From the NCBI GenBank assembly GCA_947632685.1, contig CANRQD010000002.1, forward strand, positions 1 through 41,360: DNA of 41,360 bases. The letters are read 5' to 3'. Positions 5,615 through 41,248 of this stretch are shown in pieces (the first letter of the stretch is position 1; each line of letters opens with the position of its first letter). The notes below the pieces were generated by a model. The model saw nothing but the letters and a program-made list of their open reading frames with translations. It searched no databases and had not been told where the DNA came from. This DNA comes from an uncultured Bacilli bacterium (lineage in GTDB: Bacteria > Bacillota_I > Bacilli_A > RF39 > UBA660). Made by a program: the position numbers and the translations under genes.

Positions 5615-5643
5615 TTTAAAAATAAATAAAATTGATGTATAAT
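5615..5643 (+). promoter_or_regulatory. Candidate promoter for the giant repeat gene
   Basis: TTTAAA (5615-5620), a 17-nt spacer, then TATAAT (5638-5643). The resulting leader before the SD would be very short. Confidence 0.3.
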
Positions 5644-5664
5644 AGCAACAAATGGAGGTTCATT

Positions 5665-8600
5665 ATGGAAACAAATAAAGAATTTAAAGAAAATGTAAAA
5701 AATAATGAAAAAAGAAAAAAATTTTTCATAGATAAATATAGAACTGATTTAAAACATTTAGATATTGTTTGTGATGATGCTACTATTGAAAAATTACTAT
5801 TAGAGGCTATAGAATCATTTAATGACATACCAATTACATTTTCGTCATATGGACTAAATTACTTAAAAGATAAATTAAAAACTTCAGAATCTAAATATAC
5901 TCCTAATAGTATATTTTCTGAAAATGAAATGGTAATATTAGAAAATTATCTAGAAAAAGATATAAATGGTAATTATTTAACCACAGAAGAAATTGCTAAA
6001 AAACTAAGTATAAATGTATTTGATGTAACACAAGCAGTATATAAATTACAAAATAAATTAAACTATCATAAAATTAAGAATATTTTTGGTGATTTTGAAA
6101 CTAAAATTATAGAAAGAAAGAGAAATATCAGAAAACAAGAAAAGCAAAATAATACTAAAAAAATAAAAGATATATCTGATAATGATATAGAAATTATAGG
6201 ATTATTTACAGGACAAATAAATGATATTTGTTTGGATATTGAAGAAATTGCCAATTTAAAAAACACTACTCCTAAAAAAATGCAAGAACAAATTATTAAT
6301 ATTTATGAACTATTAGAGGATAAAAAAAATTATGATAAATTACTTTTAAAATATCCGACTATTACTCAAATGTTAAGAATAAAAGGAACTGGATTAGGAT
6401 TAAGTTTTACAAATAAATTTAAGACAAATAGTTCTTCCAATAAAAAAACATTACATACTAACAATATTAGTAATAACGTTAAAATACTAAAATATTTTTA
6501 TCAACAACAACCTAATGGTACTTATTTATCTCCACAAGAAATTGCAAATTTATTAAATTATAATAATGTTAATGGTATATATTCAATAAAAAATAAAATT
6601 TTAAAAATGATAGATACTGATAACAAATATAAAGCTCAAATCTTAAAAGAATATCCTGAATTAGATAGTGATATGGAAATAAGAAATAATACTCATATTG
6701 TAAGACAAAGGAAAATTTCTAATGAAAAAATCAAAAAAGGTGCACAAATACTAAAATATTTTTATCAACCAAAACCAGATGGTACTTATTTATCTCCACA
6801 AGAAATTGCAGATTTATTAAATTGTAATAATATTAAAAGTATATATTCAATAAAAAGTGAAATTTTAAAAAAGATAGATACTAATAACGAATATAAGGTT
6901 CAAATCTTAAAAGAATATCCTGAATTAGATAGTGATATGGAAATAAGAAATAATACTCATATTGTAAGACAAAGGAAAATTTCTAATGAAAAAATCAAAA
7001 AAGATGCACAGATACTAAAATATTTTTATCAACCAAAGTTTGATGGCACTTATTTATCTTCAAATGAAATTGCCAAATTATTAAACTATACGAAAACTAA
7101 TGGTATATATTCAGTTAAAAATAGCATCTTAAAAAAAATAGATACTGATGACGAATATAAAGCTCAAATTTTAAAAGAATATCCTGAGTTAGATAATGAT
7201 ATGGAAATAAGAAATAATACTCACATTGTAAAACAAAAGAAAATTTCTAATGAAAAAATCAAAAAAGATACACAAATATTAAAATATTTTTATCAGCCAA
7301 AACCAGATGGTACTTATTTATCTCTACAAGAAATTGCCAAATTATTAAACTATACGAAAACTAACGGTATATATTCAGTTAAAAATAGAATCTTAAAAAA
7401 ATTAAATACTAATGACGAATATAAAGCTCAAATTTTACAAGAGTATCCTGAATTAAATAATGATATGGAAATAAGAAATAATACTCATATTGTAAAATCA
7501 AAAAAAAGTTCTAATGAAAAAATCAAAAAAGATGCACAATTACTTAAATATTTTTATCAACCAAAGCCAGATGGTACTTATTTTTCTACACATGAAATTG
7601 CAGATTTATTAAATTATAATAATATTAATAGTATATATTCAATGAAAAATAGAATCTTAAAAAGAATAAATGCTAATAATAAATATAAAAATCAAATTCT
7701 ACAAGAGTATCCTGAATTAGATAATGATATAGAAATAAGAAATAATACTCATATTGTAAAACAAAAGAAAATTTCTAATGAAAAAATCAAAAAAGATGCA
7801 CAATTACTTAAATATTTTTATCAACAACAACCTGATGGTACTTATTTTTCTACACAAAAAATTGCAGATTTAATAAATATAAGCACTCATAATATATATA
7901 CAATAAAAAAGAAAATCTTACAAAAAATAAATAATGATAATGAATATAAAGTTCAAATTTTACAAGAATACCCTGAATTAGATAATGATATGGAAATAAG
8001 AAATAATACTCATATTGTAAAATCAAAGAAAATTTCTAATAAAAAAATCAAAAAAGATGCACAATTACTAAAATACCTTTATCAACCTAATCCAGATGGT
8101 TCATATTTATCTACACATGAAATTGCAGATTTATTAAATTATAGTAATAATATTAATAATATATATACAGTGAAAAATAGAATCTTAAAAAAATTAAATA
8201 CTAATAACGAATATAAAACTCAAATCTTAAAAGAATATCCTGAATTAAATAATGATATGGAAATAAAAAATAATACTCCACAAAATAAAATTTCTAATGA
8301 AAAAATCAAAAAAGATGTACAATTACTAAAATATCTTTATCAACCAAAGCCAGATGGTTCATATTTATCCATACAAGAAATTGCAAATTTATTAAATTTA
8401 ACCGTAAATCATATATCTAAAACTAAAACCAAACTTTCAAAAGATTTAATTAATAATCAGGAATATAAAGTTCAAATTTTAAAAGAGTATCCTGAGTTAG
8501 ATAATGATATGGAAATAAGAAATAATACTCATATTGTAAGACCAAAGAAAATTTCTAATAAAAGAATTAAAAAAAATGTACAAATTCTTAAATACCTTTA

Positions 8601-11412
8601 TAAACCAAGGCCAGATGGTTCATATTTATCTCTACAAGAAATTGCAGATTTATTAAATTATAAAAATATTAGTACTATATATATAATGAAAAATAAAATT
8701 TTAAAAAAATTAAATACTAATGACGAATATAAAAATCAAGTTTTAAAAGAATATCCTGAATTAGATAGTGATATGGAAATAAAAAATAATATCCATATTG
8801 TACAACAACGAAAAATAATAAAAGATGTACAATTACTTAAATATTTTTATCAACAAAAATCAGATGGTACTTATTTTTCTACACAAGAAATTGCAAATTT
8901 ATTAAATTATAATAATATTAATAGTATATATTCAATGAAAAATAAAATTTTAAAAAAATTAAATACTAATGACGAATATAAAAATCAAATTTTAAGAGAG
9001 TATCCTGAATTAGATAATGATATGAAAATAAGAAATAATACTCATATTGTAAAATCAAAGAAAATTTCTAATGAAAAAATCAAAAAAGATGCACAATTAC
9101 TTAAATATTTTTATCAACAACAACCTGATGGTACTTATTTTTCTACACATGAAATTGCAGATTTAATAAATATAAGCACTCATAATATATATACAATAAA
9201 AAATAAAATCTTACAAAAAATAAATACTGATAATGAATATAAAGCTCAAATTTTACAAGAATACCCTGAATTAGATAATGATATTGAAATAAGAAATAAT
9301 ACTCATATTGTAAAACCAAAGAAAATTTCTAATGAAAAAATCAAAAAAGATGTACAATTACTAAAATATCTTTATCAACCAAAGCCAGATGGTTCATATT
9401 TATCTCTACAAGAAATTGCAAATTTATTAAATTTAACCTTAAATCATATATCTAAAACTAAAACCAAACTTTCAAAAGATTTAATTAATAATCAGGAATA
9501 TAAAGCTCAAATTTTAAAAGAGTATCCTGAGTTAGATAATGATATGGAAATAAGAAATAATACTCACATTGTAAAACAAAAGAAAATTTCTAATAAAGGA
9601 ATTAAAAAAGATGTGCAAATTCTTAAATACCTTTATCAATCAAAGCCAGATGGTTCATATTTATCTCTACAAGAAATTACAGATTTATTAAATTATAAAA
9701 ATATTAATACTATATATATAATAAAAAATAAACTTTTAAAAAAATTAAATACTGATGACGAATATAAAAATCAAATTTTAAAAGAGTATCCTGAATTAGA
9801 TAATGATATGGAAATAAGAAATAATATCCATATTGTACAACAAAGAAAAATAATAAAAGATGTACAATTACTAAAATATCTTTATCAACCAAAGCCAGAT
9901 GGTTCATATTTATCTCTACAAGAAATTGCAGACTTATTAAATTATAATAATATTCGTAGTATGTATACAATAAAAAGTGAAATTTTAAAAATGCTAGATG
10001 CTGATATCCAATATAAAGCTCAAATTTTAAAAGAATATCCTGAGTTAGATAATGATATGGAAATAAGAAATAATACTCAGATTGCAAGACAAAACAAAAT
10101 TTCTAATGAAAAAATCAAAAAGGATGCAAAAACTCTTAAATATTTTTATCAACCAAAATCTGATGGTACTTACTATTCAATAAAAGAAATAGCAGAAATA
10201 TTAAACATTAAATCTACTAGTTTATATTCAGTTAAAAGCCATATTTTTATTAAATTAAATCAAGATCAAAACTATAAAAATAAAATATTAGAAGAATACC
10301 CTAATTTATATGATGATATTGAAATACAAAAAAATATTCCTACTATTATTCCACAAGAAAAAATTAATAGAGATGTAGAAATTCTTAAATATATTTATAA
10401 ACCAAAATCTGATGGTACCTATTTCTCTATGGAAGATATTTCTAAATTAATAGATATAAATATATCTTATTTATACACCTCTAGAAACCGTATTTTAGAA
10501 AAATTAAATAATAGTTCTAATTATAAAGAGCAAATACTAGATGCATATCCTGAACTAGTGGATGATATTGAAAAGAAAAATAATAATCCAATTACAAAAC
10601 AAAAGAAAATTTCTAATGAAAAAATTAACAAAGATGTACAATTACTTAAATATTTTTATCAACCAAACCCAGATGGTACTTATTTATCTACACAAGAAAT
10701 TGGAAAATTATTAAATATAACTTCAAAAACAGCATCTCAAAATAAGTATTACATATTACAAAAATTAAATGATAGACAAAAATATAAAAAATTGATATTA
10801 GCTGAATATCCTGAATTATATAATGACATTGAAAAGAAAAATAATAAAGTTGTATTTACAGAAAAAGAAAAAGAATTTGCTGATTTACTATATACTGATA
10901 ATACAAAAATTATAGAACCAAAAGAAAATTATTGTAAAAAATTAAATATAAATTCTGCAACTTTTGAGATATTAAGAAATGGTGTAATGACTAAATTAGT
11001 TAAAAATAAAAATTTAAGAAAAACATATCCGAACTATGAAGTAGAAAATGAAATTATAGAAGACTATAATAATAATAAAAGTATTATATTATCTGAGCAA
11101 GAACTTTTAAATATAAAGCATAATTCAAGAAAATATGATATTCCAAATAACAATAAATATATTGATAATGATAGTAATAATAATTTAATGAAAGGAATTA
11201 GATTATTAGAAGAATCAAATTATGGTGACTATATTTCTCTATGTACTTATGAACAAAAGGCTATGATTGCATTAAAATTTGCATTCTTTAATAATACTTC
11301 ATATTCAACAAAATATATTTGCAATAAATTTAATGTAAATAGTGATGAACTTTCTATACTTATGAAAGAATGTTTAGAAATAAAAAATAAACAAAAAATA
11401 AAGGTTAAATAA
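5665..11412 (+). CDS. Giant (1,915 aa) soluble Lys-rich protein made of ~21 tandem sigma-70-region-4-like / LuxR-like HTH modules
   Basis: The ORF is uninterrupted in very AT-rich DNA. GGAGG at 5654-5658 lies 6 nt before ATG 5665, so the track start at 5632 is probably too early. It contains 17 in-frame tandem units plus diverged copies at both ends. I saw no signal peptide, TM segment or enzymatic motif. Confidence 0.8.
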   Translation: METNKEFKENVKNNEKRKKFFIDKYRTDLKHLDIVCDDATIEKLLLEAIESFNDIPITFSSYGLNYLKDKLKTSESKYTPNSIFSENEMVILENYLEKDINGNYLTTEEIAKKLSINVFDVTQAVYKLQNKLNYHKIKNIFGDFETKIIERKRNIRKQEKQNNTKKIKDISDNDIEIIGLFTGQINDICLDIEEIANLKNTTPKKMQEQIINIYELLEDKKNYDKLLLKYPTITQMLRIKGTGLGLSFTNKFKTNSSSNKKTLHTNNISNNVKILKYFYQQQPNGTYLSPQEIANLLNYNNVNGIYSIKNKILKMIDTDNKYKAQILKEYPELDSDMEIRNNTHIVRQRKISNEKIKKGAQILKYFYQPKPDGTYLSPQEIADLLNCNNIKSIYSIKSEILKKIDTNNEYKVQILKEYPELDSDMEIRNNTHIVRQRKISNEKIKKDAQILKYFYQPKFDGTYLSSNEIAKLLNYTKTNGIYSVKNSILKKIDTDDEYKAQILKEYPELDNDMEIRNNTHIVKQKKISNEKIKKDTQILKYFYQPKPDGTYLSLQEIAKLLNYTKTNGIYSVKNRILKKLNTNDEYKAQILQEYPELNNDMEIRNNTHIVKSKKSSNEKIKKDAQLLKYFYQPKPDGTYFSTHEIADLLNYNNINSIYSMKNRILKRINANNKYKNQILQEYPELDNDIEIRNNTHIVKQKKISNEKIKKDAQLLKYFYQQQPDGTYFSTQKIADLINISTHNIYTIKKKILQKINNDNEYKVQILQEYPELDNDMEIRNNTHIVKSKKISNKKIKKDAQLLKYLYQPNPDGSYLSTHEIADLLNYSNNINNIYTVKNRILKKLNTNNEYKTQILKEYPELNNDMEIKNNTPQNKISNEKIKKDVQLLKYLYQPKPDGSYLSIQEIANLLNLTVNHISKTKTKLSKDLINNQEYKVQILKEYPELDNDMEIRNNTHIVRPKKISNKRIKKNVQILKYLYKPRPDGSYLSLQEIADLLNYKNISTIYIMKNKILKKLNTNDEYKNQVLKEYPELDSDMEIKNNIHIVQQRKIIKDVQLLKYFYQQKSDGTYFSTQEIANLLNYNNINSIYSMKNKILKKLNTNDEYKNQILREYPELDNDMKIRNNTHIVKSKKISNEKIKKDAQLLKYFYQQQPDGTYFSTHEIADLINISTHNIYTIKNKILQKINTDNEYKAQILQEYPELDNDIEIRNNTHIVKPKKISNEKIKKDVQLLKYLYQPKPDGSYLSLQEIANLLNLTLNHISKTKTKLSKDLINNQEYKAQILKEYPELDNDMEIRNNTHIVKQKKISNKGIKKDVQILKYLYQSKPDGSYLSLQEITDLLNYKNINTIYIIKNKLLKKLNTDDEYKNQILKEYPELDNDMEIRNNIHIVQQRKIIKDVQLLKYLYQPKPDGSYLSLQEIADLLNYNNIRSMYTIKSEILKMLDADIQYKAQILKEYPELDNDMEIRNNTQIARQNKISNEKIKKDAKTLKYFYQPKSDGTYYSIKEIAEILNIKSTSLYSVKSHIFIKLNQDQNYKNKILEEYPNLYDDIEIQKNIPTIIPQEKINRDVEILKYIYKPKSDGTYFSMEDISKLIDINISYLYTSRNRILEKLNNSSNYKEQILDAYPELVDDIEKKNNNPITKQKKISNEKINKDVQLLKYFYQPNPDGTYLSTQEIGKLLNITSKTASQNKYYILQKLNDRQKYKKLILAEYPELYNDIEKKNNKVVFTEKEKEFADLLYTDNTKIIEPKENYCKKLNINSATFEILRNGVMTKLVKNKNLRKTYPNYEVENEIIEDYNNNKSIILSEQELLNIKHNSRKYDIPNNNKYIDNDSNNNLMKGIRLLEESNYGDYISLCTYEQKAMIALKFAFFNNTSYSTKYICNKFNVNSDELSILMKECLEIKNKQKIKVK
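6475..10870 (+). repeat. Coding tandem array of 17 units of 246-264 nt
   Basis: Unit starts read from the sequence: 6475, 6739, 7003, 7267, 7531, 7795, 8056, 8314, 8578, 8824, 9088, 9349, 9613, 9859, 10123, 10372, 10633. Units 1-16 measure 264, 261, 258, 249 or 246 nt, always a multiple of 3 (the end of unit 17, near 10870, is approximate). Long stretches are nucleotide-identical between units. Confidence 0.95.
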
Positions 11413-18120: not shown

Positions 18121-18155
18121 AAAAACATGTTCACATCATTTATGAACATGTTTTT
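18121..18155. terminator. Bidirectional rho-independent terminator
   Basis: aaaaacatgttca (18121-18133) pairs with tgaacatgttttt (18143-18155). It lies between convergent genes and has A/T tracts on both sides. Confidence 0.75.
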
Positions 18156-18171
18156 ATTTAATTTTCATAAC

Positions 18172-19509
18172 TTAATTAAATCTTCTTTTAACAATATATG
18201 CTATTCCACATCCACTTACTGCTATTAAACCTAATAATAAATATAAGTTTATATCTGATGTATTTGGATTTGCCATAGCATTATTAATTTCTTCTACAGG
18301 AATATTTAAATCATCTTTAGATACACCTTTAATAATTCTATAATTTTTACCATTAATTTCTACTAGTAATACCTCAATAGTTTGTTCACCACTATTGCTT
18401 TCTAATGTTATCCCAGTATTATCTTTCATATCACTTGTTTTTACTTTAATAGGACTATTAGAAGTATTTACAACAGTTGTTGTTTCATCTACTTCTATAT
18501 CATGATCAGCATAACGTATAGTTTTACCAGCAGTTGTAACAGTACTATTTATAACCTTAACTAATCCCTCTTCAGAACTTGAATAATTTAATTTAGAGCC
18601 ATCTCCATTTACTTTAAGTGTTGTTTTATTGTTATCATTACCTTTTGAAATACTATCAATTGTAACACTAGCATTATCTGCAATAATAACTTCTCCTTCA
18701 TTTTTATCAGTTAAAGCTAAATCTCCTTTTGAATTACCTGTTGAAGTTAAATTAGTATTTCCTCCAATTGTTGATCCTGCTTTTAATTTTAACCCATAAT
18801 TTTTATTATTATTTGCTGTAATTTCACCATTATTACTATTTAAATTACCAGAAATTCCATAGGTATTATTATTATTAGTTATTACTTTACCTCCATTAAT
18901 AGTTAAACTATTATTTTCAGTAACCTCAATACCAGCACTCATTTTTGATACTTCAATAGTTCCTTGATTATTTACTTCAATATTAAGTCCAAAAATACCT
19001 AGTTCAGCTGTATTATCATGAATATTAATTTTTGAATTAGCTCCATCAACAATAATTTTACCTGTGTTATTCTCACCAGTACCAAAGATACTATCTTTAC
19101 CATCAACTATACCACCTGATATAACTTTAAGAATTCCATAATCACCTAGTTGAATTGTACCTTCTTCATCAAAAGTTATTTTACCTCCAGTTGTTACCTC
19201 TAATGTTGTAGATTGCTCATCACCAATAGTAAGTAATTTGTCACCAAGATTAATTTCTTCAGAAACAGTTATTGTTGAACCTTCTTTAATAACAATTTCA
19301 TCACATTTTTTCTTACCACTATTTCCCCAAGTTATAGTACTTGCCTCTTTAAATTGATTATTATCAGCAACAGTACATGTTATATAGCCACCTTTATTAA
19401 CAGCATAGTTTGGCTTTGTATTTGCTTCTGCGTAAACTGATGTAGACATTGAAATAGTTACAATTGTTAATATTGAAAATACTATAAATGCTAAAACACT
19501 CTTTTTCAT
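18172..19509 (-). CDS. Secreted G/N/T-rich repeat protein (beta-solenoid-like) with an NPNTSD C-terminal sorting signal
   Basis: Signal peptide ends ...STSVYA/EA. Contains imperfect Gly/Asn/Thr-rich strand repeats. C-terminus is NPNTSD + INLYLLLGLIAVSGCGIAYIV + KRRFN. Confidence 0.75.
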   Translation of the reverse strand: MKKSVLAFIVFSILTIVTISMSTSVYAEANTKPNYAVNKGGYITCTVADNNQFKEASTITWGNSGKKKCDEIVIKEGSTITVSEEINLGDKLLTIGDEQSTTLEVTTGGKITFDEEGTIQLGDYGILKVISGGIVDGKDSIFGTGENNTGKIIVDGANSKINIHDNTAELGIFGLNIEVNNQGTIEVSKMSAGIEVTENNSLTINGGKVITNNNNTYGISGNLNSNNGEITANNNKNYGLKLKAGSTIGGNTNLTSTGNSKGDLALTDKNEGEVIIADNASVTIDSISKGNDNNKTTLKVNGDGSKLNYSSSEEGLVKVINSTVTTAGKTIRYADHDIEVDETTTVVNTSNSPIKVKTSDMKDNTGITLESNSGEQTIEVLLVEINGKNYRIIKGVSKDDLNIPVEEINNAMANPNTSDINLYLLLGLIAVSGCGIAYIVKRRFN

Positions 19510-19632: not shown

Positions 19633-19666
19633 GTAAAAAAAAGAAACTATTTTTATTTAGTTTCTT
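19633..19666 (-). terminator. Rho-independent terminator of the second surface-protein gene
   Basis: Perfect 9-bp stem: aagaaacta (19641-19649) with tagtttctt (19658-19666). A U8 tract follows on the minus strand. Confidence 0.75.
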
Positions 19667-19671
19667 CTATT

Positions 19672-20763
19672 TTAATTAAATCTTTTTTTTACTGTATAAG
19701 TTAGTCCACAGCCACTTACTGCTATTAAACTTAATAATAAATATAAGTTGATATCTGATGTATCTGGATTTTCAATGTCTTCTGTTTTTTCTATAGTTTT
19801 ATAATTAGCAGTTAAAAATATATCAGCAATTACTGGACTATTTTCATCATATATATTTCCATCAGCAGTTGTGAAATTAACAAAATACATTTTCTCTAGT
19901 GCATTCTTAATATGAGATAAATCTATGTCAGATAAATTTCCATTCTCCTTTATAGCAATTTTTTCAATATTTTCACCATATTTAATAGTTACTACATAAA
20001 CATTAATATCATCTGATTCATCTGATTCTATTTGTTTACCACTAGTAATAGGTATAGATTCATAAATAATTTTATTATTATTATCAGTAATAACTACCTT
20101 ATTATCTTTCGCATAGATATGATTTATAGTACCTTCTTCATTTTTAATTTTTAAATTAGAAGATGTACTATTATCCATATATATAATTGCAGTAGAGGTT
20201 GAATTAATTTTACCATCCATTATAATTAGTGGTTCTTGCTCATTAGTGTTTGAGCTAGATTTTCCAACTTCAATACCATAAGTAGTATTTAAATTCAAAT
20301 CTTTAATATGAATAATTCCACCATTAGATATTAAACCGGAATATTTACAATCAGATATTGTAACCTTATCTAATATAAGAGTTCCTCCACCATAAGCTTG
20401 AGCACCTTGTTTTGGACTATGTTCTAAATTTATATTAGTTAAAGTTAAATTTCCATTTGTAGTTGCAGTAATGATAGATTGATCACCTGATAACTCCTCT
20501 TTAGATTTATTATACCAGTCATCCTTTCCTTTAATCGTATATCCATTTCCGTTAATTGTTAACTCTCTACTAACTTCTAAATGTCCAGATATTTCTATAT
20601 CTCCACCTAAAGTAATAGTTGGACATTCACCACTTAATGCACTTTTTAAATTTTCTTCATCTTTAATATCATTACAATTTACTGAATCTGCTTTGCAATT
20701 ATATGGAATTAATAATACTGCCATAGCAATAGTAAACAATAACATACCTTTTAAATTTTTCAT
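19672..20763 (-). CDS. Secreted repeat protein, paralogue of 18172-19509, with an NPDTSD sorting signal
   Basis: Has a signal peptide. GNLTLTNINL, GGTLILDKVTISD and GGIIHIKDLNL strand repeats resemble a parallel beta-helix. The C-terminus NPDTSD + INLYLLLSLIAVSGCGLTYTV + KKRFN is closely similar to its neighbour at the DNA level. Confidence 0.75.
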   Translation of the reverse strand: MKNLKGMLLFTIAMAVLLIPYNCKADSVNCNDIKDEENLKSALSGECPTITLGGDIEISGHLEVSRELTINGNGYTIKGKDDWYNKSKEELSGDQSIITATTNGNLTLTNINLEHSPKQGAQAYGGGTLILDKVTISDCKYSGLISNGGIIHIKDLNLNTTYGIEVGKSSSNTNEQEPLIIMDGKINSTSTAIIYMDNSTSSNLKIKNEEGTINHIYAKDNKVVITDNNNKIIYESIPITSGKQIESDESDDINVYVVTIKYGENIEKIAIKENGNLSDIDLSHIKNALEKMYFVNFTTADGNIYDENSPVIADIFLTANYKTIEKTEDIENPDTSDINLYLLLSLIAVSGCGLTYTVKKRFN

Positions 20764-34107: not shown

Positions 34108-34147
34108 AGCATATATAGGTTACATAACTATATATGCTCTTTTTTAT
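34108..34147. terminator. Bidirectional terminator insulating the R-M operon from dtd
   Basis: Perfect 11-bp stem: agcatatatag (34108-34118) with ctatatatgct (34128-34138), 9-nt loop. T-tracts follow on both strands. Confidence 0.7.
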
Positions 34148-34332: not shown

Positions 34333-35577
34333 CTATTTATTTAATCCGTCAATAATGGAATCAACTAATTTATCAGTATTAGCTTTTTCCTTATGTAGAT
34401 AACAATCAATTAAAAATTTTGTATCCATCAGCATTAATGCTATTTTTTTGTGAGAAGCGTCACTAGAATCATTGTTTCTAGCTTTACTCTCTGCATATCC
34501 CATATATACAAAATTATCATTTAAATCAAATCTATTATCTTTTTTGTTATATGGAACAATAAATGCATTATATATTTTATCAGTATCATATTCCAACGGT
34601 TTATCAAAATTATGAGGATTGCTACAATAATCACCATATGTAATTTGTTTATCTATATCTTCAGCTCCAGGTAATTTTCCATTATCTATAACTGCATATT
34701 TATAATATTTAGAATCAATAATAAATAATTCTCTTTCATTTTTTCTTTTTATAATTGTATCAGGTCTCATATGAAGATTAGGTACTTTTTCAGGTAAATT
34801 CACCCATTTTAATTCAGGTCTATAATTGTTTATTAAATCATTACCAAATACAGAATCAACCATCTTTTCCCAAGCATAATTATAATTTGTAGTTAATATA
34901 TCATTAACACTTTCGGTAGAATCATCTTCAAATTCACTTTTTATAATTTGTATCATGTTATTAAGTAATGTTTTTTTTCTATCATTAAAGGATTTTCTTA
35001 ATTCATCGTTCAATATTTGAATATAATAATTCTTATTTTTATCGTCATAGTCATAATCTATTTTTTCAATATTACCAAATAACCATCCTATTTGTTCAAT
35101 ACTATGATTAATACACAAAGCATGAATTTCAGTAATAATATTATCAATAGTTCTTTTTTTATCTACATATGGATTTAAATAAATAGCACCCTGGTCTGAA
35201 AATAAGGGAGTTGTCGAAAAAGTTCTTTTCCAATTTATTTTTCCTCTTTGAGACTGCATATATATTTTTTCTTTTTCATTATATAATCCATTACTTATAT
35301 AATCATTCAAAATCCATAAATAAGCATGAATAGGAAAACCAGTAATACTACCTATTTGATTTTCATAGTCATAATCAATATCTTTAATTTTTGTTAAAGA
35401 CATCGTATATAGAATATCAATTACTGCTTTTCTTTGAAGATTTGGAAATTTATCTGATGGAATATCATAACCAAGTGGAAAAAATATAGATATATTTTCC
35501 TTGTCAAATTTAATTCCTACTCGTCCAAATTCATCATTAATACAGCTTTTACAAATCCATATTTTCTTGTTATTCAT
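34333..35577 (-). CDS. LlaJI-R2 / McrC-like PD-(D/E)xK endonuclease subunit
   Basis: RPDTIIKRKNERELFIIDSKYYKY (D...IDSK catalytic-type motif, about nt 34696-34719). An 8-nt overlap (ATGAATAA) with the upstream McrB-like gene. Confidence 0.7.
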   Translation of the reverse strand: MNNKKIWICKSCINDEFGRVGIKFDKENISIFFPLGYDIPSDKFPNLQRKAVIDILYTMSLTKIKDIDYDYENQIGSITGFPIHAYLWILNDYISNGLYNEKEKIYMQSQRGKINWKRTFSTTPLFSDQGAIYLNPYVDKKRTIDNIITEIHALCINHSIEQIGWLFGNIEKIDYDYDDKNKNYYIQILNDELRKSFNDRKKTLLNNMIQIIKSEFEDDSTESVNDILTTNYNYAWEKMVDSVFGNDLINNYRPELKWVNLPEKVPNLHMRPDTIIKRKNERELFIIDSKYYKYAVIDNGKLPGAEDIDKQITYGDYCSNPHNFDKPLEYDTDKIYNAFIVPYNKKDNRFDLNDNFVYMGYAESKARNNDSSDASHKKIALMLMDTKFLIDCYLHKEKANTDKLVDSIIDGLNK

Positions 35578-37156
35578 TATTATCTGTGTCTTTCTCAGTA
35601 ATTATAAACAAATCATTGAATACCTTTAAATTTTCATTTTCAAAACCAACAAGGAGATCATCCAATGTTTTATATTTAGGATTAAACCATGCCTCTCTAT
35701 TTAATTTAGCAACATCATCCCATAAATACATTAATACTTTTTCGGCAAACTCTTTTTTTACATCATTTATATTATCATATAATTCTGTTGTACCATCACT
35801 ATTAATTAAATCTTCTTTACCAACAAAATACTTACCTATTTGTTTATCCTCAGCATTAACACCATATGCATTTTTCTCAAATATCTCTTCATTTATTGTT
35901 TCAATAAATTTTTTCCATGTAACATTATCTGAACCAGGAATTAACATAGCTCCTAATTTTTTATCATATTCATCAGTTTCATCAAATTTATTAGATATTT
36001 TTTTTAATTTCCATCTTCTTTTAAATGCTGTATCAAGTGTATAAACATTTTGGTCACTAGTATTCATAGTAGCCATAATCCATAAATTAGAGGGAATACT
36101 AACTTTATCATTTTTTAATTTGTATCCTTCATTATTAAAATATTGTTTAATAATATCATTACTAATTTCAAATTCGCCTGAACCATCATCTTTACGATCT
36201 AATAATTGGAAAACATCTCCAAATATAGCAGAAGCATTTCCTCTATTAATTTCTTCTATAACTAAGCAATATTTTTTAGTTGGATTTGTTAGGGCATCAA
36301 ATAATATTTTAGTAAAATATCCAGGTTCAATTTTATAACTAATTTTACCATTTTGATCTACTTTAGGTACTACTAAACCAACAAATTCACCATTTGTATA
36401 GTCAGAATAGAATGTTGTTGTTATGCAATCAAATCCTTCTGTTTGACAAATATTTCTTACTTTGTAACTTTTACCACAACCAGGAGCTCCATAATATATA
36501 ACATTTGTTCCTCCGGTTACCCTATTTGTATTATCTATTTCTTTCAATTCATTTAGAACAGTATTATTTTCTTCAATTATTTTAGGCATATCATTAACAG
36601 TTACATATTTGCTAATTTTCATAGCTTTACTTAATTCTACATCTAGTGATGATGGAATATTTGCATACTCAACAATATTTTTATAATTATAGTTATTTTT
36701 TTCAATTAAATCAGCATATTGAATACCAAATAAATACAAAGATAAAATTTTAGTTTTTTCTTCGGCATTATTATATCTATTTCCTAGTAATTCTCCTAGT
36801 TCTTGTTCTGTGTAATTTGGAATATATTCAATTTTAGCTAAACCAGCTGCAATTTTTTGATATTTTTCATCATGTTGATTTAAAAAGGTAACAACATCTT
36901 CTAAAGACACATCATTATAAATGCCCTTATTATTAAAAGTATTTGTACTAGATATTAATCCATAAGAATTAAGTACTATTGATGCTAAAACACCAGTATT
37001 GTTATATCCATTTGGAAAATACTCTTGATCAATATTTATTGCAGCTTTACCTTCAATTAAATATTCTTTTAAAACATAAGATATATACCTTTTATTAAAT
37101 GGTAAAGCATCAGTATTATCAATTCGATTTTCTAGCATTGGTAAATTTAAATTCAT
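35570..37156 (-). CDS. McrB-like AAA+ GTPase subunit (LlaJI-R1 / YdiS-like)
   Basis: YYGAPGCGKSY (Walker A, about nt 36467-36490), LVIEEINRGNASAIFGDVFQLLDR, and ATMNTSDQNVYTLDTAFKRRW, the McrB-family signature. The ~200-aa N-terminal domain is unknown. Confidence 0.8.
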   Translation of the reverse strand: MNLNLPMLENRIDNTDALPFNKRYISYVLKEYLIEGKAAINIDQEYFPNGYNNTGVLASIVLNSYGLISSTNTFNNKGIYNDVSLEDVVTFLNQHDEKYQKIAAGLAKIEYIPNYTEQELGELLGNRYNNAEEKTKILSLYLFGIQYADLIEKNNYNYKNIVEYANIPSSLDVELSKAMKISKYVTVNDMPKIIEENNTVLNELKEIDNTNRVTGGTNVIYYGAPGCGKSYKVRNICQTEGFDCITTTFYSDYTNGEFVGLVVPKVDQNGKISYKIEPGYFTKILFDALTNPTKKYCLVIEEINRGNASAIFGDVFQLLDRKDDGSGEFEISNDIIKQYFNNEGYKLKNDKVSIPSNLWIMATMNTSDQNVYTLDTAFKRRWKLKKISNKFDETDEYDKKLGAMLIPGSDNVTWKKFIETINEEIFEKNAYGVNAEDKQIGKYFVGKEDLINSDGTTELYDNINDVKKEFAEKVLMYLWDDVAKLNREAWFNPKYKTLDDLLVGFENENLKVFNDLFIITEKDTDNNE

Positions 37157-37157
37157 A

Positions 37158-37922
37158 TTATTCCACTCCTTTTTCTACAATATAATCATTTAAATTATTT
37201 ATAACATAATCATAATCAAATTCATCTAAATAAGCATTCTTTTTATCATATTTAGTTTTTTTCCCTCGAACATTAACAGATATCATACTAAGTTTATATA
37301 CTCTATTATAATCAAATGTAAATTCTCGAGATATCCAAGGTTGTTTATTGATGAAATTCAAAACATTCATTATATACTGGGTATTTTGTTTAGCCCATTG
37401 ATCATGAATTTTTGGATTTTTAATACTACTATTTAATTCACATAGACATTTATATATTTCTTGAACATATTGTTTTTTTTGAGTATTAGTATCACTTTTA
37501 CAAAAATTCACATATGATTCTAAACAACCAGAATTTTTAATTGTAAAATAACATAATAAGTATGTAAAAATATAAGCATTTTCCATTTTATCATCTTTTG
37601 TAATAAAATTAATTAAATCGGGATCAATAATTTTTATTGATTTTCTTCCTTTTTCTATAGCATGCGAATACTCTAAAAGACTAATAGTTTCATTATAATA
37701 ATTAATTATTCCATTATTTTTATCAAGTAATTGCCATTTTTCTGCAATATAATCTTCTAAAGTCGATTTCCAATTAGAATAATTAAATTCATTATCTACA
37801 GAATATTCTTTAATAAATTTAGATATAAAATATACTGTATCATAAGCATATGATTTATCTGATATAAATTTTCCATTAGAATAACTTGAATCCTTTAATC
37901 TATCATATATATTAAATTTCAT
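37158..37922 (-). CDS. Hypothetical 254-aa protein embedded in the R-M operon
   Basis: GGAG/GGTGA RBS lies inside the end of the methyltransferase gene. It overlaps that gene by 11 nt upstream and leaves a 1-nt gap downstream. I recognise no motif. Confidence 0.7.
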   Translation of the reverse strand: MKFNIYDRLKDSSYSNGKFISDKSYAYDTVYFISKFIKEYSVDNEFNYSNWKSTLEDYIAEKWQLLDKNNGIINYYNETISLLEYSHAIEKGRKSIKIIDPDLINFITKDDKMENAYIFTYLLCYFTIKNSGCLESYVNFCKSDTNTQKKQYVQEIYKCLCELNSSIKNPKIHDQWAKQNTQYIMNVLNFINKQPWISREFTFDYNRVYKLSMISVNVRGKKTKYDKKNAYLDEFDYDYVINNLNDYIVEKGVE

Positions 37923-40326
37923 AATTCACCACTCCTATATAATATAAAGAATTTTTATCTATATTAATTGTAAATTTTGATTTACTCTTAACAATTGCAT
38001 AATATTCTCTAAACTCATCAGTTGAATAAATTGATAAATCAATTTTATTAATATCTATATTACCAATCTTCGGATATAAAATAGCTATTGAACCATTTAC
38101 AATAACATCTTTTGGCATTAAAGCTGCTCTTAGATTATATGTAAAATTTGGCATAATAATTGTATTTGAATTAAAATACTTACTACAAATAAATAATGAA
38201 GGATCATCAATATATTTATCATAACCATTAATATGAACAATAGAACCATCATCAAGTATATTTTTGGATTTTAATACCCAATATTTACCCTCATTTTTTA
38301 AAAATTTATTTGTAATTTGTCTATCCCTGAAGAAATCAAAAACATCTAGTTTTAGTTTTTTTATATATTCATCAAAAAATGAGTTTCTATATATTAACCA
38401 TAATCTATCATGATAAATATATTTTTGTGGTACAATTCTTAATTCGTTGTCTCTCTTATTAAATATAATTGTATTATCATATTCTTTTTTTGTGAAATGG
38501 ATTACTAAAATTTCAATAAACACCTTTTTAAATGCACTAACACCATAATCTGTAATAGAAACAATATTATAGCTTTCATATTTTTTTCTTAACGAATCAA
38601 ACTCAGGTGTCATAATAAACGTTTTTGGTAAAACCATTATTATATTATCACTTTTATTATAAATTTTTTCAAGAAATACTCCATAAATATTATCACAATC
38701 AAATTCAATTTTCTTTTTATATTCTTTTTTCGTTTTTGAATCTAATTTAAAGAAAGGAGGATTTCCAATTATGTAATCATATTTTTCTTTAAATTCATAA
38801 TCAATAAAATCAATATTAATTGGAGTAACAATAACTCTTTCTGTATCAATATGATATTTATTTAATTCATTAATTGTATCATTTAGAACCTCGTTATTTA
38901 TATCTACAATATCTAAATAAATTTTTTCTGTATTATAGAATTTAGATATTATTGGAATTAAAAAATTTCCACCACCTACAGAAGGTTCAAGAATTCTAAC
39001 ATTTTTTTTATCATATTCATCAATACTTTTTAAACAATCATAGATTACAGATTGTGGTGTGTAGAAGCTTCCATTTTTTCTAGCTTCTTTAGTACTATTT
39101 TTTTCTTCATTAATATATGATTTAATATAAAGATTATCACTTGAAACAGTTTTATCTTTTGAATTAATATACTCATTAAAATCAAACATATCATTAATAT
39201 TTTTAGCTATCTTAGTCATTATCTGAGTTGGAACTGCTTCACCAATACATCTTCTTATATTTAATTCATTCTTTTTCAAAAAATCTATTCTATTTTCTAT
39301 AATTTTTCTATCATTAATATTCTCAGCAACCCATTTAAACGAATCTGGAATGCTCATTACTCTCATCAATTCTCTAATGGATAAAACTCTATCATCTCTA
39401 GGATGAATGGTATCCATTGCAGCCAATTGATCATTCCTTGTTGCAACACATGCACATGGTTTATCCCAAAATAAACGCCTATATTTATTTCCTAAATAGC
39501 CAGATTTTAACAATTCTTTTTTACCGTCAATCAACTTATAAGGTTTTTTATCGTCTGCATTATTGAATGCAGATTCTCCCTCTTTTAAATCATGTATCCA
39601 TTCTCTCATATATGAATCATATGGTCTAAAAAAATGTAAAATATCTTTTTCATCAAAATCGTTAGGTTCATCAAGTTTTTTTAATTTTCCAATTGCATCT
39701 CTTAAAGTTATTTGTTTTTCAGGTAGTGGAAATAAATTTAAAGGAGACATAAAATCTTGATCCTTTCTTGTTCCAATTACTAATGTTCTTGGTCTACTTG
39801 AAGGCACTCCATAATCTTTAAAATTTATAACTCTATATTCTATATTATAATCATCACCTAAATTAGAAATAATAGCTTCGCCAATTTTCTTGTCAGTTCC
39901 ATCAATGTCAGTACAAATAGTTTTGATAAAAGCTCTAACATTTTCAAAAACAAATACTTTAGGTTTAATTTTTTTTACAATCTTAATTGCCTCTACAACT
40001 AAACTATTTCTTTTTTGTTCATTATTCTTTTTGTAATTAGCTGTAGACATACCTTGACATGGTGGTGTTGCCACAACAACATCAACGTCATTTAAGTTTT
40101 CATTTTCTTTCCAATATTCTATTTCCTCATAAATTTTATCTTGTATCGTATTATCTGTTATATCTCCGCATATATAACCAGATTGATATTTACACTTATT
40201 ATTATATTTTTGTATATCTATTCTACTTTTTATTAGCTCACTTGTTGCAATGCATTCAAATCCATTTTCTTTAAATCCATAGCATCCAACACCGGCACTA
40301 CTAAATAGACTTATGTATGTTCTCAT
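37912..40326 (-). CDS. Fused DNA methyltransferase: N-terminal C5-cytosine MTase plus C-terminal gamma-class N6-adenine MTase with a TaqI-like target-recognition domain
   Basis: N-terminal half: LFSSAGVG (motif I), TPPCQGMS (IV, about nt 40045-40068), FVFENV (VI), VPSSRPR (VIII), IGEAVP (X). C-terminal half: FYTP, LEPSVGGGNF (I), IIGNPPF (IV, NPPF encoded at nt 38752-38763). AGGAGG RBS. Confidence 0.85.
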   Translation of the reverse strand: MRTYISLFSSAGVGCYGFKENGFECIATSELIKSRIDIQKYNNKCKYQSGYICGDITDNTIQDKIYEEIEYWKENENLNDVDVVVATPPCQGMSTANYKKNNEQKRNSLVVEAIKIVKKIKPKVFVFENVRAFIKTICTDIDGTDKKIGEAIISNLGDDYNIEYRVINFKDYGVPSSRPRTLVIGTRKDQDFMSPLNLFPLPEKQITLRDAIGKLKKLDEPNDFDEKDILHFFRPYDSYMREWIHDLKEGESAFNNADDKKPYKLIDGKKELLKSGYLGNKYRRLFWDKPCACVATRNDQLAAMDTIHPRDDRVLSIRELMRVMSIPDSFKWVAENINDRKIIENRIDFLKKNELNIRRCIGEAVPTQIMTKIAKNINDMFDFNEYINSKDKTVSSDNLYIKSYINEEKNSTKEARKNGSFYTPQSVIYDCLKSIDEYDKKNVRILEPSVGGGNFLIPIISKFYNTEKIYLDIVDINNEVLNDTINELNKYHIDTERVIVTPINIDFIDYEFKEKYDYIIGNPPFFKLDSKTKKEYKKKIEFDCDNIYGVFLEKIYNKSDNIIMVLPKTFIMTPEFDSLRKKYESYNIVSITDYGVSAFKKVFIEILVIHFTKKEYDNTIIFNKRDNELRIVPQKYIYHDRLWLIYRNSFFDEYIKKLKLDVFDFFRDRQITNKFLKNEGKYWVLKSKNILDDGSIVHINGYDKYIDDPSLFICSKYFNSNTIIMPNFTYNLRAALMPKDVIVNGSIAILYPKIGNIDINKIDLSIYSTDEFREYYAIVKSKSKFTINIDKNSLYYIGVVNYEI

Positions 40327-40340
40327 ATCTACCTCCTGAA

Positions 40341-40798
40341 TTATATATACTTTGGTAATTTACTATAATCATATTTTGTAGTAATAACCTTTAATTCTTT
40401 CATTTCTTTATCTATGTCCTCTAACGCCTTATCAAGTGTATAATCTATTTCAGCATCTTCTTTTATAAATTTTAATCCTAATTTTATTTCATTTAATTTT
40501 TGAATTATTTTTTAATGTTTTTTTCTTTTATTAGCATCTCAATCTAAAATATCATATAAATAATCTTCATTGTATCCAGCTGTCTTTAAAAGTTGGTGCA
40601 AAGGTAAGTTTTATTATTCTGAAATTTTTTTAAAATTTCTGAATCTGGTTTAGCCACTCTTCCATTTTCTATATCATTTAAAGAAGAATTACTTATTCCA
40701 ACTCTTCTTGTAAGTTTTTTTTGAGAATATTATTTTGCAGTTTTTTCTCCAACAATTAATGTAGTTAATGCTTCACTATTTTTCATAATTTCACTCAT
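40341..40798 (-). pseudogene. Decayed XRE-family HTH regulator gene immediately upstream of the methyltransferase
   Basis: My hand translation gives MSEIMKNSEALTTLIVGEKTAK*YSQKKLTRRVGISNSSLNDIENGRVAKPDSEILKK. A frameshift then occurs in an A7 run. It continues ISE**NLPLHQLLKTAGYNEDYLYDILD*DANKRKKH*KIIQKLNEIKLGLKF...KYI*. That is five in-frame stops plus one frameshift. The length of 458 nt is not a multiple of 3. Confidence 0.75.
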
Positions 40799-40827: not shown

Positions 40828-40836
40828 ATTATATCA
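40828..40836 (-). promoter_or_regulatory. Extended -10 promoter upstream of the decayed regulator and R-M operon
   Basis: The minus strand reads TGaTATAAT about 30 nt upstream of the pseudogene ATG. An AAGGA RBS follows. Confidence 0.5.
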
Positions 40837-41248
40837 CATTTTGTCAGTTTTTTAAAATATTTTTGTTCTGAAATCTTGACAATTGAATTTATTTGTACTA
40901 TATAATAGCGAACAATATACCAAATATTTAGAAATAATAAAATTGAAATTTCTAATAGAAACAAGTGACATTATTACTAAGCCACTTTCTCAATTTATTA
41001 CTGTTATGATCCAAATTATTAAATCTATAATAAATTTTTTTAAACAAAAATGGAGCCTTTCAACTCTTTCAGGGAAAATATAAATATCAGTTTGTAACAA
41101 TTTAATAATGTATCAAATTCTTATAAATTAAGGCTTTTTAATTTTATTAATTTGTTAGAGTTTATTAAAATAACTTTATTTTTGACATTTAGTATCTAGA
41201 AAATAAAAATGATACTATTACACATTATTTGAGCTTATCAATTCACAT

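Follow-up and report, generated by a model that had tools for sequence, protein, structure and literature searches.

A probable modification-blocked McrBC-like restriction-modification operon with a separate putative recognition subunit in an uncultured gut Bacilli bacterium

The window analysed here is an entire metagenomic contig of 41,360 bp from an uncultured Bacilli bacterium (CANRQD010000002.1; GC content about 22-25%), the minus strand of which carries a restriction-modification (R-M) operon encoding a fused methyltransferase, a 254-residue protein that we call Rec, a McrB-type AAA+ motor and a LlaJI-type nuclease. This operon is probably a modification-blocked McrBC-like R-M system of the LlaI, LlaJI and BsuMI kind, with Rec as the reader that docks on the motor. 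Rec looks like the recognition half of a type IIS-like restriction enzyme whose own nuclease has been lost, now working with a McrBC-type motor and nuclease. In the scheme that we propose, a single transcript would run from a promoter near 40830 to a hairpin near 34110. The fused methyltransferase would protect an asymmetric site in the host, probably with 5-methylcytosine (m5C) on one strand and N6-methyladenine (m6A) on its complement, the pattern produced by type IIS double methyltransferases. Rec would read the same site when it is unmethylated and, carrying no nuclease, would dock on the motor, probably through an N-terminal motor domain here termed N100. The motor hexamer would then hydrolyse nucleoside triphosphate (NTP) and translocate DNA, and the LlaJI-R2/McrC-like PD-(D/E)xK subunit would cut. 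The operon and its open reading frames (ORFs) are as follows.

34333-40326, minus strand: four-gene operon (four intact ORFs)
37912-40326, minus strand: methyltransferase, 804 aa (ORF translation)
37158-37922, minus strand: Rec, 254 aa (ORF translation)
35570-37156, minus strand: motor, 528 aa (ORF translation)
34333-35577, minus strand: nuclease, 414 aa (ORF translation)

An earlier model-made description of the window, hereafter the sequence-only reading, had reported these four intact ORFs and their three junctions, which were reproduced exactly: methyltransferase and Rec overlap by 11 nt, Rec and motor are separated by 1 nt, and motor and nuclease overlap by 8 nt. The first three start codons of the operon each have a Shine-Dalgarno-like sequence upstream. 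All four genes are under purifying selection, with ratios of nonsynonymous to synonymous substitution rates (dN/dS) of 0.05-0.24 against three relatives. A modification-blocked system of the LlaJI/BsuMI type had also been proposed there, and it fits the conserved methyltransferase-Rec synteny described below, with blocking by methylation as its predicted consequence.

Rec and its relatives

Rec, listed as an unknown protein in the sequence-only reading, has no sequence match in Pfam, NCBIfam, PADLOC or PDB, but its fusions now allow a role to be assigned. Relatives numbered 24 in a 5.8-billion-protein index, and a profile search recovered a rare family of 63 clusters among 1.84 billion (1.84e9) representatives, with the following arrangements (P numbers denote cluster representatives of this family, and L numbers the related loci examined).

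Rec alone, about 250 aa: 12 clusters
Rec with HNH_2 or HNH, 427-476 aa: at least 10 clusters
Rec with NOV_C, 452 aa: 1 cluster (P0049)
Rec with an unassigned C-terminal domain, 498 aa: 1 cluster
Rec N-terminal to a McrB-like AAA_5 domain, 377-829 aa: 8 clusters (the 377-aa member ends within AAA_5)

The methyltransferase gene lies directly 5' of the Rec-family gene in every related locus examined that reaches far enough upstream; these loci include gut Bacilli metagenome-assembled genomes (MAGs) and Firmicutes bacterium CAG:884. What accompanies Rec varies. In L016-L019, a methyltransferase 50-70% identical to that of the window is followed by a protein of ~430 aa, in which Rec forms the N-terminal 250 residues (33-39% identical to the window Rec, E 1e-27 to 1e-47) and is joined to HNH_2. 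No McrB-type or LlaJI-type homologue was found by tblastn within those loci, whose gene content is that of a conventional type IIS-like R-M pair. AlwI and HphI have nucleases of this HNH_2 type (AlwI/BbrI/HphI group; PMC5714182). The window Rec stops at residue 254, whereas its HNH-bearing relatives run ~180 residues further; it has no HNH match in Pfam or PADLOC and no nuclease domain. In L021/L022, the homologous methyltransferase is followed by a Rec-AAA+ fusion (P0041, 582 aa) and an RE_LlaJI nuclease, with a helix-turn-helix (HTH) gene first at the P0041 locus, an arrangement that would form a LlaJI-style two-subunit enzyme; the window is therefore a split variant of this LlaJI-like arrangement. 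The window and its close relatives have a separate Rec gene, then the motor and then the nuclease. Finally, L005 and L027 encode stand-alone Rec followed by a different McrB (637 aa, McrB_lid) and a PF10117 McrC.

Rec is thus fused to HNH, NOV_C or AAA+ domains, or stands alone, beside the same methyltransferase. It is constant after that enzyme while the cleavage machinery is exchangeable, and its position in the fusions is that of the N-terminal DNA-binding domain of McrB and R1.LlaJI (PMC1459862; PMC12707154). Rec is therefore most likely the DNA sequence-recognition subunit, and on this pattern it is assigned to the restriction enzyme and not to the methyltransferase. The wider proposal, that Rec is a portable reading module used with at least four cleavage devices beside one methyltransferase family (HNH in cis, a NOV_C PD-(D/E)xK nuclease in cis, a McrB-like motor in cis, and, in trans via N100, two distantly related McrB-type motors), stands in our estimate about an even chance of being right.

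We note that the Rec-HNH gene beside the fused methyltransferase of Christensenella sp. UBA5489 (L020, 8001-9319) is frameshifted near codon 70; this is probably a restriction gene that has been inactivated while the neighbouring methyltransferase was kept. Two Rec-HNH relatives weakly match the PADLOC model PDLC03488, "Type II restriction enzyme" (5.7e-08 and 5e-05); beyond these weak matches, likeness of Rec to any named REBASE enzyme is not established. Our literature search found no paper describing the Rec family or the N100 domain.

The AlphaFold2 (AF2) model of Rec (predicted local distance difference test score, pLDDT, 88.7; predicted template modelling score 0.90) comprises an N-terminal winged-helix-like domain and a helical domain. 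The N-terminal unit has the topology helix-strand-helix-helix-strand-strand and gave local Foldseek matches to the winged helices of E2F-DP (probability 0.87), DpnI and CRP/FNR. No whole-fold match was found for the model with Foldseek against PDB and BFVD, and we claim no named fold.

A winged-helix-like domain would also suit a regulator, and Rec might serve the methyltransferase or its expression outside the nuclease complex, either as a factor replacing a lost controller or as a methyltransferase targeting helper. Rec always comes right after the methyltransferase, overlapping it in the window by the 11 nt that include its stop codon, and some copies have lost the controller or retain it in decayed form. 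Against this, the Rec domain is fused to a nuclease (HNH_2, HNH or NOV_C) or a McrB-like motor in ~20 clusters and to a methyltransferase in none, and stand-alone Rec occurs alongside intact controllers in L001, L005, L008, L024 and L027; we regard such a role as quite improbable.

Motor, nuclease and the N100 domain

The motor and nuclease carry the following features, with catalytic motifs intact.

36827-37156, minus strand: N100, N-terminal motor domain of ~100 residues (conservation between motors), candidate docking domain for stand-alone Rec
36596-36811, minus strand: HTH_73 (PF24718) helical domain, motor residues 116-187 (Pfam E 2.4e-20)
35570-36541, minus strand: McrB-type AAA+ NTPase domain of the motor (GAPGCGKS followed by Y, VIEEINRGN, MNTSD, FKRRW)
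34702-34767, minus strand: PD-(D/E)xK catalytic motif RPDTI...IDSKYY of the nuclease (motif location)

The sequence-only reading described a McrB-like GTPase and a LlaJI-like nuclease, and profile searches place both proteins in the families named. The motor has a Walker A motif (GAPGCGKS) followed by Y, a Walker B motif (VIEEINRGN), the McrB consensus loop (MNTSD) and paired arginines (FKRRW); it matches AAA_5 (1e-08, Pfam), NCBIfam McrB (6e-16, below the family cutoff) and the McrB structures 6ut3 (2e-19) and 6hz4 (3e-15) in PDB. Its AAA+ part is 43% identical to R1.LlaJI over 327 residues (E 3e-72) and 34% identical to LlaI-type R2. The label of GTPase activity is not established. GTPase activity was not detectable for R1.LlaJI (PMC1459862), and LlaI.R2 and BsuMI.R2 accept several nucleotides, the nucleotide specificity of McrB-type motors depending on the N-linker (bioRxiv 10.64898/2026.08.31.748284). 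The nuclease matches PF09563 RE_LlaJI (E 2.7e-38, Pfam) and is 33% identical to R2.LlaJI of pNP40 over 402 residues, the full length (E 1e-56); its PD...DSK is the counterpart of the PD...(D/E)xK motif described for R2.LlaJI (PMC1459862).

McrB-type motifs and likeness to solved McrB structures would also suit a modification-dependent (type IV) McrBC system that happens to adjoin an unrelated methyltransferase, and a McrBC census recorded branches associated with methyltransferases, which it found unexpected for type IV and left for later description (PMC11090510). However, the genes of the operon are translationally coupled, the methyltransferase stays linked without exception even at loci with swapped motor-nuclease modules, and no modified-base reader domain (SRA/DUF3578, YTH or EVE) was detected with Pfam. 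LlaJI and LlaI, the closest relatives to have been characterised, are both blocked by modification, and a methyl-dependent nuclease with its own methyltransferase would kill its host. A type IV system is thus very hard to reconcile with the locus, and we give it hardly any weight.

The AAA+ domain of the motor is preceded by 205 residues, HTH_73 among them, with no similarity to the N-terminus of R1.LlaJI. HTH_73 seems optional, since the motors of L013/L015 and L005 lack it and are nonetheless paired with Rec. N100, by comparison, retains 33-41% identity between motors that share only ~27% in their AAA+ domains. An N100 profile matched the start of the gene after each further stand-alone Rec examined (L025/L026, L027/L028 and L029; E 4e-23 to 1e-41) and none of 60 Rec-family representatives, eight Rec-AAA+ fusions included. 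N100 is present on downstream motors of both the LlaJI type and the McrB plus McrC (PF10117) type, in all stand-alone-Rec lineages sampled; elsewhere, a word-index protein search gave one match and a metagenome scan two near-identical relatives. Because N100 accompanies every stand-alone Rec examined and is absent from Rec-AAA+ fusions, it is a candidate docking domain, and its distribution suggests that free Rec docks there.

Several points weigh against the proposed scheme. The winged-helix likeness of Rec is confined to local matches of weak significance (Foldseek E above 0.5), and no characterised DNA-binding protein matches Rec significantly in sequence or over the whole fold. The case for N100 as the dock comes from its co-occurrence with Rec, which was examined from the Rec side, and the AF2 model of the motor N-terminus, built from a two-sequence alignment, has a pLDDT of 57, with residues 1-53 below 50 and confidence of 70-93 in the HTH_73 segment only. 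The 205-residue N-terminal region with its HTH-like domain could itself bind DNA, as the R1.LlaJI N-terminus does. With the controller gene decayed, as described below, the window copy may also be poorly expressed.

The DNA-binding potential of the motor N-terminus leads to the alternative that N100 and HTH_73 recognise the site and that Rec is an accessory, for instance an additional contact with DNA, an aid to assembly or the decaying remnant of an HNH restriction enzyme that was truncated. The site is bound by the N-terminus of R1.LlaJI (PMC1459862), through an N-terminal B3 domain in Helicobacter pylori LlaJI.R1 (PMC12707154), and the 205-residue extension of the window motor includes an HTH-like Pfam domain, whereas R2 of LlaI and of BsuMI is AAA+ only. 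Against this alternative, Rec is under purifying selection (dN/dS 0.16-0.24) and has been retained as a separate gene in at least 12 clusters (50% identity level). Furthermore, HTH_73 is absent from the L013/L015 and L005 motors that pair with Rec; N100 is too conserved, and too closely tied to the presence of Rec, for a variable specificity element; and in the fusions Rec substitutes for N100 and is not added to it. Recognition by the motor is therefore unlikely, and we retain Rec as the probable reader and N100 as its candidate dock.

Methyltransferase, controller and transcription signals

The 5' part of the operon and its flanks contain the following features.

39196-40317, minus strand: m5C domain, N-terminal in the methyltransferase (motifs FSSAGVG, PPCQGMS, ENV, GEAVP)
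37915-39102, minus strand: gamma-class N6-adenine domain and target-recognition region, C-terminal in the methyltransferase (motifs EPSVGGGNF, NPPF)
40341-40798, minus strand: controller-like pseudogene of an XRE-family HTH regulator, 458 nt (tblastn and conceptual repair)
40828-40856, minus strand: putative sigma-70-type promoter, TTTAAA-17-TATAAT, TG-extended (consensus match)
About 34108-34147, bidirectional: intrinsic-terminator-like hairpin with a 15-bp stem, a 9-nt loop and A-run and U-run flanks (folding)

A fused m5C and m6A methyltransferase had been recognised from the sequence, and Pfam agrees: residues 4-377 match PF00145 (E 7e-46) and residues 409-595 match PF07669 (5e-10) and PF02384 (1e-06), in keeping with the NPPF and EPSVGGGNF motifs. 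PADLOC, one of the checks that the sequence-only reading had proposed, matched the protein end to end with the MTase_II model PDLC03277, which derives from REBASE type II methyltransferases (model positions 8-820 of 823, E 1.5e-168). The enzyme is under purifying selection (dN/dS 0.07-0.08) and shares >52% identity over the full length with at least 120 clusters defined at 90% identity. The view that a single-chain dual methyltransferase is unusual does not hold in the light of these clusters, the end-to-end PADLOC match and the precedent of M.Esp3I/BsmBI, a gamma-class m6A and m5C fusion that modifies both strands of an asymmetric site (PMC3874165). This type of fusion is common and already known, and the interest of the operon lies elsewhere, in the recognition subunit.

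The count of four genes in the sequence-only reading was right for the intact genes but overlooked a fifth, decayed gene between the promoter and the methyltransferase start. An intact 173-aa XRE-HTH homolog occupies the matching position in Firmicutes bacterium CAG:884 (L011, 5059-5580) and matched 40341-40798 of the window in two different frames by tblastn (2e-13 and 6e-11). The window copy contains three in-frame stops and one frameshift, and after conceptual repair matches HTH_3 (8e-07). An alternative genetic code was ruled out as an explanation of the stops, which include both TAA and TGA and are accompanied by a frameshift, and the four long genes read through with table 11. The operon thus formerly had a fifth gene, a controller, that has since decayed. 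Intact regulators of 62-174 aa stand at the controller position in seven loci: homologs of the decayed gene in L011 and L024, and other XRE-family regulators in L001, L005, L008, L021 and L027. L023 has no regulator there. With the controller decayed in the window and absent from L023, it seems dispensable in this clade, and the decay in the window copy means that expression of the operon is probably constitutive or otherwise regulated.

The upstream promoter (40828-40836) and the strong bidirectional terminator (34108-34147) of the sequence-only reading were both recovered. The promoter (40856-40828) has the TATAAT box and shares the top score of a consensus scan (10/12), being the sole scanned locus with an upstream TG, and its core (GTCAA ... 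TGATATAAT) is kept in L001, L005 and L008, upstream of their controller genes. In this AT-rich DNA, the same scan gave 83 promoter-like sites across the region against 80 expected by chance. The terminator hairpin has a folding free energy of -15.7 kcal/mol on the minus strand and -15.5 kcal/mol on the plus strand, with z -5.4 on either strand and none of 200 shuffles equally stable. A rule-based terminator scan of the region returned no terminator because the loop is 9 nt long, and was overridden by the folding result.

Known systems, mobility and significance

The closest parallel in gene order is LlaI of Lactococcus lactis pTR2030, arranged as controller, fused two-domain methyltransferase, R1, R2 and R3. 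The sequence-only reading had pointed to BsuMI of Bacillus subtilis; this parallel stands for the architecture, a three-gene cassette in which R1, R2 and R3 are YdiR, YdiS and YdjA, although LlaI is closer still. Both systems resemble the window in having three restriction genes, for a separate DNA-binding protein (a role predicted for Rec), a McrB-like AAA+ motor and a McrC-like PD-(D/E)xK nuclease. They differ in several respects. The controller is a pseudogene in the window, unlike LlaI.C. M.LlaI is presumably a double m6A enzyme, in contrast to the m5C and m6A fusion of the window, and BsuMI has two separate methyltransferases, which we take to be m5C enzymes, instead of a single fusion. 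Both LlaI and BsuMI target unmethylated sites (PMC1459862; bioRxiv 10.64898/2026.08.31.748284). LlaI.R1, a DNA-binding protein in its own right, docks outside the R2 hexamer and has a two-domain, ERCC4-like alpha/beta fold (bioRxiv 10.64898/2026.08.31.748284), whereas the window Rec is predicted to be winged-helix plus helical. Homology of Rec to LlaI-type R1 was ruled out (BLASTP E 1.4, hhalign probability 0.2%, in comparison with the R1 of pUCCL629C, a split copy). R2 of LlaI (337 aa) and of BsuMI (343 aa) consists of AAA+ only (PMC1459862; bioRxiv 10.64898/2026.08.31.748284), without an N-linker, whereas the 528-aa window motor has N100 and HTH_73 in its 205-residue extension. We note that the Lactococcus plasmid pUCCL629C (L010, 3100-9700) carries a degraded LlaI-like system beside abiA, with the adenine methyltransferase in fragments and R1 split into two ORFs; its genes for the 337-aa AAA+ protein and for the nuclease of the LlaJI family are intact.

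The nearest sequence relatives of the window motor and nuclease belong to LlaJI of L. lactis pNP40 (M1, M2, R1 and R2), also a four-gene operon with the methyltransferases first. LlaJI recognises an asymmetric site and requires modification of both strands (PMC1459862). It has two separate m5C methyltransferases (pNP40 genes) where the window has one 804-aa fusion, and no third restriction gene, its recognition domain being the R1 N-terminus, whereas the window has the separate 254-aa Rec gene. Type IIS HNH systems (Esp3I/BsmBI, Eco31I/BsaI and HphI) share with the window a gamma-class m6A plus m5C double methyltransferase, although M.Esp3I has the gamma-class m6A domain first and the window the m5C domain first. 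These enzymes combine recognition and HNH in one chain, a design shared by L016-L019, whereas the window Rec lacks HNH and would leave cleavage to the NTP-dependent motor-nuclease pair. Canonical McrBC systems (Escherichia coli, Thermococcus gammatolerans) resemble the window in the Walker A motif with its aromatic residue, the MNT[A/S]D loop, the paired arginines and the PD-(D/E)xK partner, but have a modified-base reader, no cognate methyltransferase and a PF10117 nuclease, in contrast to the coupled methyltransferase and RE_LlaJI nuclease of the window, in which no such reader was found. In the sister variant of L005 and L027, a PF10117 McrC is accompanied by a homologous methyltransferase and Rec.

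The window also holds nusA, infB, a glmS-like gene and dtd, and these housekeeping genes indicate that it is chromosomal. The cassette is mobile and is carried here in the chromosome of a low-GC gut Bacilli member. Its neighbour beyond the terminator is dtd in the window; in CAG:884 (L011) it follows a RecG-like helicase gene fragment (assigned from translation only) and precedes a 906-aa superfamily 1 (SF1) helicase, and there is a serine recombinase nearby in L001 and integrases nearby in L025. The SF1 helicase (AAA_19/AAA_30/UvrD_C_2) lies directly 3' of the cassette in L005 (11819-14539), L007 (6123-8843) and L011 (11787-14498), and also downstream in L023 and L024, from about 8020. It was ruled out as a part of the window system, being absent from the window, where the terminator and then dtd follow. 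The helicase is 89% identical between L005 and L007/L011, the motor-nuclease modules of which differ (McrB plus PF10117 McrC in the former and LlaJI-type in the latter), which suggests that motor-nuclease modules have been exchanged within the operon at one locus. A contig binned to an uncultured Methanobrevibacter MAG (L012) carries a cassette 87% identical to that of the window at the DNA level; as all other relatives are bacterial, the archaeal assignment is probably a binning error and not a transfer.

Two further features of the window lie outside the operon. A 1926-aa ORF on the plus strand (5632-11412) contains ~16 tandem copies of a 264-nt (88-aa) unit with 81% matching (repeats at 6485-10720), each copy with weak HTH-like Pfam matches (Sigma70_r4, HTH_17, Crp), and would encode an unusual giant protein. 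A direct repeat of 122 nt, 86% identical between its copies at 18151-18271 and 19650-19771, flanks a 445-aa ORF (18172-19509).

Modification-blocked McrBC-like systems such as LlaJI, LlaI and BsuMI are poorly understood: in vitro cleavage by LlaJI has not been achieved, the target of LlaI is unknown, and the coupling of a separate DNA-binding subunit to the motor has been modelled only just now, for LlaI. The specific interest of the window operon appears to lie in a recognition subunit held in common with HNH type IIS-like enzymes and in an apparent adaptor domain on the motor. Among the relatives, a single recognition module is combined with an HNH nuclease, a fused motor or a motor in trans, and this natural series would allow the site to be found on a simple HNH enzyme and then applied to the versions driven by a motor. 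The series also illustrates the swapping of specificity and cleavage modules inside a restriction operon, and N100 offers a concrete docking hypothesis. If Rec is indeed a portable module, it would connect simple type IIS enzymes directly, in evolutionary terms, with McrBC-like systems driven by NTP, and would provide a second, structurally unrelated solution to R1-R2 docking, by an adaptor domain on the motor instead of the AAA+ surface contact of LlaI. For uncultured low-GC gut Bacilli, the operon would constitute a further barrier to DNA transfer and a possible source of a new asymmetric specificity.

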